This document shows, one piece after another, positions 58,292 to 63,323 of a DNA stretch of 64,000 nt. The DNA is from a bacterium. Lineage in GTDB: Bacteria; Zhuqueibacterota; Zhuqueibacteria; Residuimicrobiales; Krinioviventaceae. The notes beneath the pieces are model-generated. The model worked only from the letters and a program-made list of their open reading frames with translations, was not told the origin of the DNA and did not search any database. How positions within the stretch are numbered: the stretch's first letter is position 1; each line of letters begins with the position of its first letter. The translations under genes were made by a program, and so were the position numbers. Where the stretch lies: contig OY843751.1 in assembly GCA_963693055.1 (NCBI GenBank), forward strand, positions 960,001 to 1,024,000, given 5' to 3'.

Positions 58292-60865
58292 TTAATCATT
58301 ACTTGCCTGATAATTGGGGTGTTCTATTGTAATTCCTACTTTTTTTGTATATTTTTGCCCGCTGTTCAAGTCTTTTATATTGATGATTAAATCATAAATT
58401 CCTGTTTCCTGATTTCCTACAGCCAGATTGAGGTAAATGCTTTCGTCGCGGGCTATACCCTGATAGTCAAATGCCGTTCCGGTTTGCCCGTCTTTTCCCA
58501 GCAGACTTTTAAAGAAACCATACAGTTTCTGTTCTTTTAGGTTTTCTATGGGACCAGCCGGTTTTAAACTGCACTCTAAATTGAAATGAGTTTTAAATTC
58601 ATTGTTGAGAATTAAATTGTATATTTCAAAATAGATGCCAATTGTGGCATTTGACGGATAAGCTGAAAACATGTGAGGTGTATAAGTGATATCATTTTTG
58701 GTGAATTTGGAATATTCGGTTTTTACTGTAATCGGATTGGATAGAATTACATCACTGGTTAAAAGTTGATTTGTATTATAGTTAACAATCTCAAGCGTGT
58801 CTCTATAAACTCCTGTACGATGAGATAAAAGGTCAGTAAATTGTAATTCATAAACATGAGAGCCGGGTTTGATAGAAGTACGATCTAATCTAACAGCTGA
58901 ATTGTATTTCCAGACATCCGGTCTAACATCTACCGGTACTTTTTCAGTTTTTTTGATTCGAACTGAAGGGTCCCAATTCCTGTCATACATACCTAAAAAT
59001 GTTTTCAGGTGCAATTCAGGGGGAGACTGAGAACGGTCCAGAACAGTTTGGTTGCCTTCCAGCAGATAATAAAGCTCAAGATCCGTTTGATTGTTTTCAC
59101 CTTTAAAACTCAGAAAGGTATAAGGAATGGTTAGTGGCTTTGAAATGTATCTATAATCTGAACTTTCAGTTTGTAGTGCTGATTTTAAATCATCAAGTGT
59201 TTCTTTTTTAAATTCAACACACATACGTTTAACTTGTTCAATATCAGGCCTGTCCATAAAAGAGACTACACTCAATTGCCCGTATTTAGGATCAAGGTCT
59301 TCCCGGCCTGCTGGTGCATATGGGATGGCCTCAATAACCCATCCCAGAAATCCGCCGTATTTTTTGAAATGGAAAATCATTTCTGGGCGGGTATCGGTTT
59401 TGAAATATTTCCAGCTGAGGTTCATTGGCAGGTTGTCAAAATATTCTTTACGGTATAAACTTTCACCCAGATCAGCCCTGGGAACCCGTGGCGCTCCTAC
59501 CGCCATTTGGGCTTCATCATCAGGAGATTCGTTCAGTCTTCTGGCAATTTCACCTGAATTGGCGCTGATCCCTCCAACAATATGACGCATTGACGCATCA
59601 TATTCATCCTGTTTTTTTAGACGCCATGCAATATAATCTTCTGAAATAATATTTGGCATGCCATCCATTGATCTTGCCTGGTCATCCGGGAATCCATGGC
59701 GTATAAAAATGAGCCCTAGGTCGTCCAGATCCCGTTCACTATTGATGATAGCTTGAGGAAAACCAGCTGCTTTGAGCATTTGTGAACCCTGAATATTGTA
59801 GTTGGCAAAGGGATGAGAGTCCTGATAGGCTACTTCGTTAAATCTGTTACTCAACATGTATCTGCGAAAGTTTTTTTGAGCAAATGCAAGTCTTCGGTAA
59901 TGTTCACCAATTCTTTCGTTTTCCAGAGTAGCATAATTGGGGTCGCGAACATTCCAAAAGCGTTTATAAAAAATTGGCAGGTCCTGCATGCGCGTGTTTT
60001 GTAATTTGTCATGCTCCTTATCAGTTAACAGGTAGCTAAGATCTTTATAAATTTCAATTACTGTTGAGCTGTCTTGAATGTTTTCAATAGCTTTCCAATA
60101 GTGTTTTAATCCCTTTGCATCATCCTGCATATTGAAATAGTTTCTGGCCAAAAGCAGATCAAGCATGCTTGTAGAATAATTCGGGAATATTTTTTGTGTT
60201 TCTAATAACTGATCCAGGCTGAGCTGGTAATGTCCTGCAGCAAAATGGACATGCGCGAGGTTCAGGTAATACTGGGGATTGTTCGGATTTTTTTCTATCA
60301 GATAGTTGATGGTTTCGATTATGTTTTCATTGTCTTGCATCCATATTGCAATTTCAAGGAATTGCTGGAATATTTCCTGATTATCGGGATTGTGTCGAAT
60401 GGCTTTGTTGTATAATTTTAGGGTTTGTTCCGGCATATCTAATAGTTTATTGGCATTGCCTATTTCAAGCCATGCATCTGAAATAGTGGGATCGTATATG
60501 ACAGCTTTTTCAAAATAATCGCGAGCTTTGATGATGCGTTTGGGTCGATGTTTGTAGACCATTCCCATTTGATAATATGCGCGTGCATATTCCCTGTCAA
60601 GTTGAGTTGCCCTTCTAAATTCGTTCAAGGCATCCCTCCCCGCGGGATTTTTTGAATAATAAACCATACCCATGCCATAATGTGCCTGGGCAATATCATT
60701 ATCCTTGTCCAGGATAGATTTGAACAGTTTTTCTGCTTTTTTTAATTCTTTTTTGTAGACATGTGACATCCCCTGGTCGAACAATGGCTGCCACCAAAGA
60801 TCAGCTTCTGATGCTAACAAAACCGATGAAAAGAAGATTACTGCTAAACAGGTAATATTTTTCAA
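58292..60865 (-). CDS. Exported TPR + GWxTD-domain protein
   Basis: Signal peptide, multiple TPRs, 'FWNVRDPNYATLENE..EHYRRLAFA..NF' and 'G.IFIRHG.PD', plus C-terminal Ig-like strands. Confidence 0.78.
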   Translation of the reverse strand: MKNITCLAVIFFSSVLLASEADLWWQPLFDQGMSHVYKKELKKAEKLFKSILDKDNDIAQAHYGMGMVYYSKNPAGRDALNEFRRATQLDREYARAYYQMGMVYKHRPKRIIKARDYFEKAVIYDPTISDAWLEIGNANKLLDMPEQTLKLYNKAIRHNPDNQEIFQQFLEIAIWMQDNENIIETINYLIEKNPNNPQYYLNLAHVHFAAGHYQLSLDQLLETQKIFPNYSTSMLDLLLARNYFNMQDDAKGLKHYWKAIENIQDSSTVIEIYKDLSYLLTDKEHDKLQNTRMQDLPIFYKRFWNVRDPNYATLENERIGEHYRRLAFAQKNFRRYMLSNRFNEVAYQDSHPFANYNIQGSQMLKAAGFPQAIINSERDLDDLGLIFIRHGFPDDQARSMDGMPNIISEDYIAWRLKKQDEYDASMRHIVGGISANSGEIARRLNESPDDEAQMAVGAPRVPRADLGESLYRKEYFDNLPMNLSWKYFKTDTRPEMIFHFKKYGGFLGWVIEAIPYAPAGREDLDPKYGQLSVVSFMDRPDIEQVKRMCVEFKKETLDDLKSALQTESSDYRYISKPLTIPYTFLSFKGENNQTDLELYYLLEGNQTVLDRSQSPPELHLKTFLGMYDRNWDPSVRIKKTEKVPVDVRPDVWKYNSAVRLDRTSIKPGSHVYELQFTDLLSHRTGVYRDTLEIVNYNTNQLLTSDVILSNPITVKTEYSKFTKNDITYTPHMFSAYPSNATIGIYFEIYNLILNNEFKTHFNLECSLKPAGPIENLKEQKLYGFFKSLLGKDGQTGTAFDYQGIARDESIYLNLAVGNQETGIYDLIINIKDLNSGQKYTKKVGITIEHPNYQASND

Positions 60866-60998: not shown

Positions 60999-61574
60999 TC
61001 AAGGAGTTGTGAATGATGGCTCTGTGGGTTCTGTGATGGCCGTGTCACGTTCCCAACCGCTGTATTGTAATTCAAGGGATTCTATTGCAATTTCGTTTGA
61101 ATTGGCATCAAACTCGGTTACAGGGCTGTATTGTGCCGGCCAGCAGTTGTAAACCTTGAAGGCCATAACAATTTGTCCTGCTTCATTCAGCAATTCAATT
61201 ATTATGTCTTTTTTATATTCAGATTGGGGTGTACTAGAATTGTTATTCCAGACCTGGGTTGCCCATTGTTCAAAGGATGTATCATGAGTGCGGCCCCGCT
61301 CAAGTAAAAGAGGCTGAACAGTTGTTTTTCCGGGCACCTGCTTAACTGTACCGTTTTTGTCATTTCCTGATTTATAAACCATTATTTGAGTTTCCCGGTG
61401 CAAACCACTGATATGGAAAATTCCGGGTATATATTTCCCGTCCCATTTTACTCTGAATTTACTGCGATTATAAGGATTTGTTCGGTGTGTATTTACAGCA
61501 AACTCGATTGCAATGGATGAACCTGTTGCAAATAGTATTAAAAGGATTATCGAAACAATTCTAATTTTTTTCAT
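60999..61574 (-). CDS. Phage tail tube-like (T4 gp19/Afp1-5 family) protein with a Sec signal peptide
   Basis: 'NPY...KFRVKWDG', 'PGKT....LERG.THD..FEQWA', 'KKDIIIELLNEAG' and 'CWP...DANSNEIAIESLELQYSGWERD'; N-terminal MKKIR-hydrophobic-SIA; AGGAG RBS. Confidence 0.85.
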   Translation of the reverse strand: MKKIRIVSIILLILFATGSSIAIEFAVNTHRTNPYNRSKFRVKWDGKYIPGIFHISGLHRETQIMVYKSGNDKNGTVKQVPGKTTVQPLLLERGRTHDTSFEQWATQVWNNNSSTPQSEYKKDIIIELLNEAGQIVMAFKVYNCWPAQYSPVTEFDANSNEIAIESLELQYSGWERDTAITEPTEPSFTTP

Positions 61575-61598
61575 AATGAACTCCTGATTTTCAATATA

Positions 61599-62135
61599 TT
61601 ATCGAATACTGAGATCCCGTTCCCAACCTTCATGTTCCAGTACAAGTATTTCCATTGCTTCATCACTACTGTTTTTTTCCAGTTTGGTCAAGGGAACATA
61701 TTTTGCCGGCCAGCATCTGTAAACTTTGAATGCCATCAAGGTCCTGCCTGTATTGTCTACCAGTTCAATAATAATATCTTTGCGAAAATCTCTCAAAGAG
61801 ACTTCTGATCCCATTCCTCCGCTTACATAACTAACTTTATTTGCCCATTTTTCAAATTCATTGTCCATGGTGCGCGGTCTTTTGAGCACAATAGGTTGAT
61901 ATTCTGTCTGTCCGGGTGCCCTTTGTGCGGAATTGGGACTAGCTCCATTGCGATATTCAATAACCTCGGTTGTTCTTACAAGATCACTAACAAATGAAAT
62001 ATCAGGAATAACTTTCCCATCCCATTTGACATGGAAATCGACTTGTACATTCCCGGATGATGGTGGTTGAGCGAATGAATTTAAAAATAAAGTGAATATA
62101 AAGACGGAAAGTAGAATGAATTTAAATTGTTTCAT
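61599..62135 (-). CDS. Phage tail tube-like (gp19 family) protein with a Sec signal peptide (paralog)
   Basis: 'FHVKWDG', 'RTTEVIEYRNG', 'PGQTEY..I.LKR', 'FEKWANKV', 'FRKDIIIEL' and 'CWP...LEHEGWERD'; signal MKQFK-hydrophobic-SFA|Q; GGAGG RBS. Confidence 0.85.
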   Translation of the reverse strand: MKQFKFILLSVFIFTLFLNSFAQPPSSGNVQVDFHVKWDGKVIPDISFVSDLVRTTEVIEYRNGASPNSAQRAPGQTEYQPIVLKRPRTMDNEFEKWANKVSYVSGGMGSEVSLRDFRKDIIIELVDNTGRTLMAFKVYRCWPAKYVPLTKLEKNSSDEAMEILVLEHEGWERDLSIR

Positions 62136-62546
62136 ATTTTCCTCCAGGATGTTTATATAATAAACCCATACGTTTCCGGATTTATTCTATATGAGGATAA
62201 TGTTTTTCGTAATAACTTAGTATGAGCGGGATTATTAAGATATTGGTTTTTACAGGTTAATTTTTGAAATGGTATGTAAATCTGGTCTTACCCGTGAGCC
62301 TTTTTTAACAGATTTGAGGTGAGAGAAAAGTATTGTGTGATTAATTTTGAATTGTGTGGATGAACTTGAAGTTTAATACGAATGATACAAATGAAACTAA
62401 TTTTCTCATATTAGATTTACTGATTCATTTTAAAATTCCATTGGACCTTTGATAATATGTTATTTTTTTTTTTCGTATTCATTCAACAAATGTCTTGACA
62501 TTATTTGATCACTTTTAGATAGAACTTTAAGTTAAGATTATCGCAA

Positions 62547-63323
62547 TTACTTTCTGCGGGTGAATAACAAACCGGACCAGGTATTGTCAATAGAGCATAT
62601 TTTATAATCTACCAGTCCGGCAGCCAGACCCGTATTGCGTATCAGGGTTTGAGTAATATCAGTCTTAACTCCCGAAGATTTTTTAGGCCATGCGATCCAT
62701 AGTTTTTGTTCTCCGTATTGCTTGCTGATTGCTGCAATCTGATCTTCCAGGTCAGCCATGCTGTTTAGAAACCAAAGGGTGACATCTCCGGGTGAATTTT
62801 TAGAGGATTGCAATTTTGCTCCATTTGGTAGTTGGGGGGCAAGCATGTCTTTAAATCCATCAGGTTCATTTAACAGCGTTACAACAGAGTCTGGTTTGAT
62901 TCCGAGTTTTTTAGGAAGGGGAGTTCCCGAATAGGCGGCCATAGTAGATTCCGGTACAACCGGGGCCGCGGGAGGCGATTCTATTGCCTGTTTAAGAGCC
63001 TTTTGAATTTGGTCCCATTCCGTATAAACGGCATCGGGTAAGATGGATTGTGTTTTTAAAACTTTATCTGGTTCTCCTTCAACAAATACGATAGGCATAT
63101 TACGGGTGTTTTTATAACTTCTGAACCCAATTGCTACATCGCGTCCTACTGATGGTTTTCGTGAGAGATCAATAACCATTATATCCGGTGGATCATCACG
63201 CAATTGTCTCATACTCTTGTTATCAATCGGCCCTGATGCTACCTGGTATCCGAATGATTGCAGGATTTCAGACAAGGATTCTGCTTTTTCTACATCCCAA
63301 TGTAATAGATATATTGAATACAA
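62547..63323 (-). CDS. Atypical receiver-like domain fused to a DUF3052-like domain
   Basis: N-terminal REC-like fold ('PPDIMVIDL', 'PIVFV'); C-terminal 'YSGTPLPKKLGIK...WIAWPKKSSG...GLVDYKICSID.TWSGL'. Confidence 0.6.
   Translation of the reverse strand: MYSIYLLHWDVEKAESLSEILQSFGYQVASGPIDNKSMRQLRDDPPDIMVIDLSRKPSVGRDVAIGFRSYKNTRNMPIVFVEGEPDKVLKTQSILPDAVYTEWDQIQKALKQAIESPPAAPVVPESTMAAYSGTPLPKKLGIKPDSVVTLLNEPDGFKDMLAPQLPNGAKLQSSKNSPGDVTLWFLNSMADLEDQIAAISKQYGEQKLWIAWPKKSSGVKTDITQTLIRNTGLAAGLVDYKICSIDNTWSGLLFTRRK

Follow-up and report, generated by a model that had tools for sequence, protein, structure and literature searches.

Two adjacent genes in the window (the whole 64,000-nucleotide stretch of DNA that was analysed), here called A and B, encode a pair of tube proteins that is a real, conserved and apparently undescribed system, in which a part of a cytoplasmic nanomachine was likely re-used as a small tube or barrel of the cell envelope. 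The best explanation, to which we give about an even chance, is a Sec-exported, sheath-less cassette in which rings of B would be capped by a ring of A, resulting in a short tube or, in the lineage of the window, an A6B6 double ring. It rests on membership of the tube family, conserved leaders, a genome in which no other gene of a contractile injection system (CIS) was found, purifying selection, and the complementary loss of stacking faces. The cap-and-body architecture is moderately supported, the function of the pair weakly.

A tandem pair of tube genes

The host genome is a single 6.5-Mb contig (100% complete) in which A and B are the only two genes matching PF06841. Their open reading frames lie where they had previously been placed, separated by 24 bases (Table 1). 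The original prediction of two tandem tube paralogues was borne out: both proteins exceeded the curated cut-offs of PF06841 (28; A, 108 bits; B, 130 bits) and TIGR02241 (62; 98 and 130 bits), and CIS inner tubes were the top Foldseek matches (E 7e-11 and 4e-10) of their AlphaFold2 models (pLDDT 85.6 and 86.9). Among solved structures, CIS inner tubes such as 7adz and 7b5h also came out on top when sequences were compared. The cut-offs of the NCBIfam equivalogs CIS1_fam and CIS5_fam (220 and 260 bits) were not reached (best 52.8 and 62.7 bits). The predicted models have the β-sandwich tube fold with a helix and the β2-β3 hairpin, so that the gp19-like fold, on which the prediction stood or fell, is supported by models and structural matches alike. 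The mature parts of A and B are 46% identical, and the core net charge of the tube proteins is near neutral in all groups. The flanking genes are as first described, a TPR-GWxTD gene downstream and a gene with weak PhoB-like and DUF3052 matches upstream, and their association with the pair is not kept outside the genus. A promoter scan yielded 14 promoter-like sites versus 7.4 in shuffled sequences, none of which stands out, and a terminator scan yielded no terminators.

Table 1. Positions within the window of genes A and B, their predicted elements, and the neighbouring genes.
Feature	Position	Strand	Description
Upstream neighbour	62547..63323		Receiver-like (PhoB-like) domain and DUF3052, both weak matches
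A ribosome-binding site	62141..62145	-	Sequence GGAGG
Gene A	61599..62135	-	178 aa; gp19-fold tube paralogue without N-loop, G-x-T-H-D, NEAGQ turn and C-arm; predicted cap ring
A predicted Sec/SPase I signal peptide	62070..62135	-	Residues 1-22, S-F-A, then Q23
A β2-β3 hairpin	61908..61967	-	Residues 57-76; kept donor stacking face
A helix end and α-loop	61788..61838	-	Residues 100-116; kept donor face
B ribosome-binding site	61581..61585	-	AGGAG, within the A-B gap
Gene B	60999..61574	-	191 aa; predicted signal peptide fused to a full-length eCIS-type tube subunit
B predicted signal peptide	61509..61574	-	Residues 1-22, S-I-A; Ala22 at the Met1 place of leaderless relatives
B N-loop	61458..61508	-	Residues 23-39; kept acceptor face
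B α-loop	61215..61256	-	Residues 107-120; donor face decayed in the window lineage (4-residue deletion, conserved S-L lost)
B NEAGQ turn	61173..61187	-	Residues 130-134; acceptor face
B C-terminal arm	61002..61034	-	Residues 181-191, E-P-x-E-P; acceptor face; A without arm
Downstream neighbour	58292..60865		TPR and GWxTD domain

Search for a contractile machine

The absence of sheath, baseplate and spike genes, originally noted for the window, extends to the complete genome, in which none was matched by the sheath, Baseplate_J, gp25, Phage_GPD or cap profiles. The sheath profile PF17482, which matched in control genomes, gave no match in the host genome, and neither did a profile of our own built from 13 sheaths; Baseplate_J (PF04865; Afp11) gave none there, with 3 of 14 control genomes matched. 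The same was true of gp25 (Afp9), Phage_GPD (Afp8 spike) and VipB (PF05943; TssB/C sheath), all with matching controls, and of the Afp16 cap (Pvc16_N), for which profiles from the parent CIS loci were used. PF17541 (T6SS sheath) and PF19266 (Afp7 initiator) had no match in the host genome, and no control genome was matched by them either. All in all, the profiles from the parent CIS loci retrieved only A, B, and one generic AAA protein; the single Afp15-type AAA match was weak (53 bits), in a 689-residue frame 3.3 Mb away. Among the components in the definition of extracellular CIS (eCIS) in PMC6899500, the Afp1/5 tube homologue is represented by A and B, and Afp11, the sheath, Afp8, Afp9 and Afp16 were not found. 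Nor did the whole-genome profile scans reveal a complete CIS locus lacking tube genes, to which the pair might have belonged. A-B is a member of the gp19 tube family and appears not to be a CIS, a T6SS or a prophage.

Predicted export leaders

A classic signal peptide behind a strong ribosome-binding site had been claimed for both genes, and both leaders indeed combine a basic n-region with a hydrophobic stretch and an S-x-A motif (residues 20-22), their starts being preceded by GGAGG (A) or AGGAG (B). A hydrophobicity rule was rejected as the sole test for leaders, as it flags 934 of 2017 ORFs of the host genome and is, thus, not discriminating; what speaks for genuine leaders is, instead, their conservation across the family and where the cleavage site falls. 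A homologue search with A as the query gave 7237 hits, the best 120 of which were classed together with the two window proteins (55 A-type with leader, 42 B-type with leader, 24 leaderless, and 1 unclassed). In this set (best 120 of 7237), 23 of the 24 leaderless proteins have their Met1 three residues ahead of a conserved Phe; in all 42 B-type proteins, Ala (36), Ser (3) or Gly (3) is found there instead, which speaks against the notion that close homologues start downstream of the leader. With a small residue two places earlier, 39 of the 42 fit the −3/−1 rule, and just 2 of them have a Met near the native start; the short form could, therefore, not be made from the ancestral start. All 20 leader starts examined are preceded by an RBS-like motif, and a lipobox or twin-arginine (Tat) pattern was found in none of the 97 leader-bearing proteins among the best 120 of 7237. 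The leaders mostly evolve faster than the mature parts but retain their pattern (dN/dS of the A leader, 1.18 and 0.31 versus 0.08 and 0.06 in the mature part). The host genome contains 14 Omp85-family matches, which indicates that an outer membrane is present, and three secretin genes. The leaders of A and B look like true Sec signal peptides, and export is well supported at the sequence level.

Distribution and neighbourhoods

In a GTDB search, the best 80 of 166 confirmed loci were kept and their classes read by hand. Other leader-bearing gp19 homologues, the search for which had been proposed with the original prediction, were present: the A-to-B pair recurs in 14 of these loci (best 80 of 166), across phyla and without a CIS neighbour. 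The leader group in the same best 80 of 166 comprises 22 loci, that is, the 14 pairs, 5 loci with B only, 1 with A only, 1 broken chimera, and 1 B-like gene cut at its 5′ end; the leaderless forms stand beside a sheath gene in 13 loci and are solitary in 45. The orphan status of the exported forms had been emphasised originally; it is not special to them, given that it is shared with these 45 leaderless relatives. A sheath profile matched in 13 of 13 genomes with sheath-linked tubes, 2 of 22 with leader-group loci, and 5 of 45 with orphans (completeness of the genomes not given), and five further genomes of the phylum, three of them already counted, gave no sheath match. One of the 13 sheath-linked rows, also part of the sheath alignment, is from the unpublished genome G101 (L074), on which alone no claim depends.

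In metagenomes, 7 of the best 80 of 578 loci encode leaders, none of these adjoining CIS genes, and a CIS neighbour was found at 0 of 29 leader-group loci. Of 98 genes adjoining the leader-group loci, none was identified as a phage gene by Pfam. There was also no conserved third, client or partner gene (the best non-tube cluster occurred in 5 of 31 loci); the neighbours of the pair differ from locus to locus and are unrelated. In the host phylum, 8 of 167 genomes have the pair. It is a maintained accessory cassette, patchily spread. Its members are not obligate partners, with single-gene loci (5 B-only and 1 A-only) among the 20 loci with intact leaders. None of the 15 phylum-named leader-group loci is from Actinomycetota, Chloroflexota or archaea, versus 17 of 45 leaderless orphans, kin among these not being independent.

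The chimera (L022:9986-10552) is a single gene with an A-type front and a B-type back, broken by a stop and without a clear leader; it appears to be a pair collapsed by recombination. The A-only locus (L025:602-1138) belongs to a Syntrophaceae genome, and a related, partly syntenic metagenome contig (L136) has both A and B. In seven genomes of the host phylum (L100, L101, L104-L107 and L110), a sheath gene adjoins the gene of the leaderless parent tube, and a member of the same family as the host (G003, locus L003) has an AlgoCIS-like locus.

A phage origin was considered and rejected: a single-protein scan of viral contigs was empty, and a profile scan gave 12 loci, of which 11 were CIS-like and none had a leader. 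The best match to the pair proteins in phage records was just 29%. A prophage remnant was also rejected, as there are no phage neighbours and no relaxed selection. The IMG/VR "viral" contigs with a tube (L124-L135) resemble eCIS loci in 11 of 12 cases, with a sheath and other CIS genes; these have perhaps been mis-binned as viruses. Plasmids contributed 42 records, with the best matches beginning near the native N-terminus, and the ESM Atlas contained generic PF06841 clusters only.

Solitary leaderless tubes and other leaders

The solitary leaderless tubes among the best 80 of 166 GTDB loci (e.g., L030, L036, L040-L043, L058, L063 and L075-L078) have no CIS neighbour; for 33 of the 45, the flanks available measured 1.5 kb or more upstream and 1 kb or more downstream. 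A sheath match is absent from 40 of their 45 genomes, the completeness of these MAGs not being given. They keep both stacking faces, evolve at dN/dS of 0.06-0.18, show conserved synteny within Acidobacteriaceae and Chthoniobacterales, and also occur in Bathyarchaeota. They appear to be an undescribed cytoplasmic tube in their own right. When their neighbours were searched with PADLOC, 8 of 126 matched, mostly through generic domains, and there was no defence-island signal.

Several distant tubes carry other, longer leaders (P0149, P0153, P0162, P0164, P0170, P0175, P0198, P0199, P0249, P0257, P0264, P0267, and the one at L169); those of P0175 and P0257 have a lipobox-like Cys, and some of these leaders sit on an R-G-V-T core. 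Leaders may, thus, have been gained more than once. Fusions were rejected, as 14 longer homologues turned out to be leaderless read-throughs or frameshift joins.

Selection and history

The mature domains evolve at dN/dS of 0.084 and 0.056 (A) and 0.126 and 0.036 (B), and the neighbouring genes at 0.05 and 0.10. Values of 0.04-0.13 indicate purifying selection on the mature domains, similar to that on the neighbours. Two trees separate the sheath-linked tubes and some orphans from a sheath-free side (SH-aLRT 99 and 87), which contains the remaining orphans together with every A and B row from GTDB. A forms one branch (SH-aLRT 96), as do the 15 paired B (SH-aLRT 90), and a single clade of A plus paired B was not rejected (p-AU 0.67, 79 rows). 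The free tree requires 11 leader changes; a single origin of the leader was not rejected (p-AU 0.229) when tested with 101 rows, after 17 long and 15 near-duplicate rows had been dropped. With the G003 tube as the root, whose branch length is 5.1, the tree lacks a reliable root. A CIS neighbour was present at 0 of 56 R-G-R-T loci versus 55 of 95 loci with V, L or I at this place, which indicates that R-G-R-T marks the sheath-less side. As orphan status is common to many leaderless relatives, sheath loss likely preceded export. The likely history would lead from an eCIS tube through a solitary cytoplasmic copy and the gain of a leader to duplication and division of labour, an order that is inferred, the root not being established.

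Stacking faces and the cap model

Columns of the alignment were compared before any complex was modelled. A jointly lacks the N-loop, G-x-T-H-D, the NEAGQ turn and the C-arm, all of which are kept in sheath-linked, orphan and B proteins; elements retained in sheath-less forms are likely tube-tube contacts. NEAGQ is present in 42 of 42 B-type and 24 of 24 leaderless proteins, and in 0 of 55 A-type proteins (best 120 of 7237). The β2-β3 loop is the main contact between rings and is bound by the N-loop, and in the last Afp1 ring the N-loop binds the cap Afp16 (PMC8718954).

Three mature chains each of A and B were modelled as a complex, which scored 0.61 (best of three controls, 0.00); 116 of 157 solved pairs and 2 of 215 mismatched ones attain the mark for such scores, a calibration unlike this job. 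In the best run, residues 57-76 and 92-116 of A lie on residues 31-41, 48-53, 93-94, 129-134, 160-162 and 185-191 of B (partner pLDDT at least 72). Modelling of hetero-complexes had been proposed earlier. Against the model stands the poor agreement of the three runs (700, 205 and 213 contacts), which share at least 0% of contacts. The model contains half rings only, and its pass may reflect memory of solved tubes.

The faces, donor on A and acceptor on B, were defined from this single best run and compared, arms excluded, with a consensus derived from the 13 sheath-linked tubes. A (16 proteins) agrees with this CIS consensus at 0.35 of the acceptor positions, 0.81 of the donor positions and 0.69 of the remaining ones, and 53 of 54 further A proteins among the best 120 of 7237 are below 0.5 on the acceptor face. 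Single B and orphan proteins keep both faces. The window B is different: only 4 of 23 donor positions are kept, versus 42 of 70 elsewhere (p 0.0006), its stacking hairpin and its α-loop both being decayed. Decay of the donor face (<0.5) was found in 4 of 15 paired B (among them those of the window, L014, L060 and L067) and in 0 of 41 B among the best 120 of 7237, a set which, having been retrieved with A, favours an intact donor face. The B proteins of L060 (Brevinematales), L067 (Myxococcota) and L019 have a decayed donor face similar to that of the window. A single clade of the B with a decayed donor face was not rejected (p-AU 0.875; the group was named after the data had been seen).

As A would dock on the N-loop end of B and offers no such face itself, it is placed as a terminator. 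The original prediction had suggested an initiator and a major subunit, or a heteropolymer; judged from the lost acceptor face, the modelled stacking and the Afp16 end of the tube, A is more likely to terminate or cap the tube than to initiate it or to co-polymerise with B. The lost donor face of the window B makes a closed double ring likelier here than a filament.

Proposed assembly and alternative explanations

In the proposed mechanism, Sec would export A and B to the periplasm, the subunits crossing unfolded and assembling outside the cytoplasm, and cleavage of the leader would give B back its native N-terminus exactly. B would form hexameric rings. The hairpin and α-loop of A would then dock on the N-loop/NEAGQ/C-arm face of B, that is, the end of the Afp tube bound by the Afp16 cap, and because nothing could stack on A, length would be self-limiting. 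In most hosts, B with both faces could stack several rings under one cap; in the window lineage, where the donor face of B is lost, a closed A6B6 double ring is likely. By analogy, the barrel might serve as a periplasmic carrier or a conduit, with an elongated client kept or escorted inside it; this is the least certain step, our best guess at a function but a doubtful one. Hcp rings are known to bind cargo. CIS tubes have a lumen of 3.6 nm and contain cargo proteins, as described in the available text of PMC8894135. Whether the pair stands for a new class of envelope nano-assembly, a Sec-routed tube with a body ring and its own cap ring, built as short tubes or a 12-subunit barrel with cargo, on a wider base of solitary cytoplasmic tubes in bacteria and archaea, is a question to which we would answer yes with slightly less than even confidence.

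It is unlikely that B instead forms long sheath-less filaments, periplasmic or on the surface, pilus- or conduit-like, in which A would be interspersed or make up the end ring, along the lines of the original prediction. Both faces are kept in 41 of 41 B among the best 120 of 7237 and, at a level of at least 0.5, in 11 of 15 paired B; B-only loci occur; some siphophage tube proteins self-polymerise, according to the available text of PMC8718954; the secretins of the host leave an outward route open; and the one 3A+3B run with 700 contacts, unlike the stacked best run, is compatible with a mixed arrangement. The lost donor face of the window B nevertheless argues against long filaments here, A is unable to extend them by the sequence evidence, and there is no anchor, usher or sorting domain, including in the 14 longer homologues mentioned above, which are leaderless read-throughs or frameshift fusions.

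The patchy accessory spread (8 of 167 phylum genomes), the unrelated neighbours and the occurrence in distant phyla would also suit an envelope decoy or immunity factor, free rings of A and B binding the tube ends or cargo of incoming phages or CIS and so blocking delivery. Defence by disturbing tail assembly exists, though in the cytoplasm, in the available text of PMC11364771 and PMC10884400. A decoy is nonetheless improbable, given that neither A nor B has a PADLOC match, that the few PADLOC matches near leaderless orphans (8 of 126) are mostly generic domains, that Pfam found no phage gene among the 98 leader-group neighbours, and that A docked on B conceals both usable faces. A and B might also be exported as monomers or single rings that do not stack at all and have taken on a new binding or enzymatic function. 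In our estimate, this is slightly less probable still: single-gene loci of both types and the weak agreement among the 3A+3B runs fit with this, but the complementary retention of ring-meeting faces is hard to explain without stacking.

Finally, the reading in which A and B act in the cytoplasm as part of a CIS or prophage that is split or was missed, or are a decaying remnant, with leaders that are artefacts of gene calling, is very improbable and already largely refuted: split eCIS loci exist (available text of PMC6899500), one A/B chimera (L022) is broken, and the PF17541 and PF19266 searches had no matching positive control, but the complete single-contig genome has no sheath or baseplate match, the ancestral Met1 is Ala, Ser or Gly in 42 of 42 B with a Met nearby in 2 of 42 (best 120 of 7237), and dN/dS is far below 1. 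The Sec-exported cassette of B rings capped by A remains the preferred reading. If it is true, a tube fold has been domesticated, together with its own cap, for a sheath-free job in the envelope, and the two proteins would offer a system for studying how tube length and polarity are controlled.

Relation to known systems

Neither leader-bearing nor solitary gp19 tubes turned up in the literature searched, with subscription journals mostly outside it; the supplement tables of the eCIS surveys could list them. One survey (PMC6899500), in its available text, requires afp11 together with afp1/5, and the survey PMC12210884, likewise in its available text, discards clusters without baseplate, tube or sheath-initiator genes. 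As these two surveys, so far as their available text goes, require a baseplate or sheath gene, tube loci such as A-B are excluded by design. In the available text of a third survey (PMC8213781), the words "signal peptide" and "orphan" are absent.

The direct parent of the pair appears to be the leaderless tube of ~175 aa of an uncharacterised eCIS lineage (e.g., L070, L084 and L088), which is 45-50% identical to the window B and has the same N-loop, NEAGQ turn and C-arm. Its locus encodes a sheath, the tube, T4_baseplate (PF12322), Pvc16_N, an AAA protein and a separate gp5; by likeness, not by an Afp11 tree, this split spike resembles the lineage II subtypes IIa/IIc in the available text of PMC6899500. 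In contrast to the pair, there is one tube gene in such a locus, leaderless and always beside the sheath gene, and it has R-G-V-T, whereas most sheath-less and exported forms have R-G-R-T.

The characterised eCIS tubes, AlgoCIS Alg1/Cis1 (7adz), Anabaena tCIS (7b5h), Afp1 (6rao/6rap) and Pvc1 (6j0b), share the fold with the pair at ~30% identity, as well as the hairpin, the α-loop and, in B, the N-loop. They have no leader; their assembly takes place in the cytoplasm, on a baseplate and within the sheath, and they exit by lysis (available text of PMC8894135), unlike A and B, which carry predicted export leaders and for which no sheath, baseplate, spike or Afp16 was found. The T6SS protein Hcp/TssD has a related hexameric fold (6bdc), and solitary (orphan) hcp genes exist, but Hcp is leaderless and requires the T6SS, for which the host genome has no VipB match. 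To our knowledge, all characterised relatives (phage tails, eCIS, tailocins and T6SS) assemble in the cytoplasm with a baseplate. The closest parallel to A itself is with the terminators Afp16, Pvc16 and Alg16, and gp3 of T4: like them, A is predicted to occupy the N-loop end of the tube and to halt growth there, but it has no match to Pvc16_N and is, in contrast to them, a recent paralogue of the very tube that it would cap.
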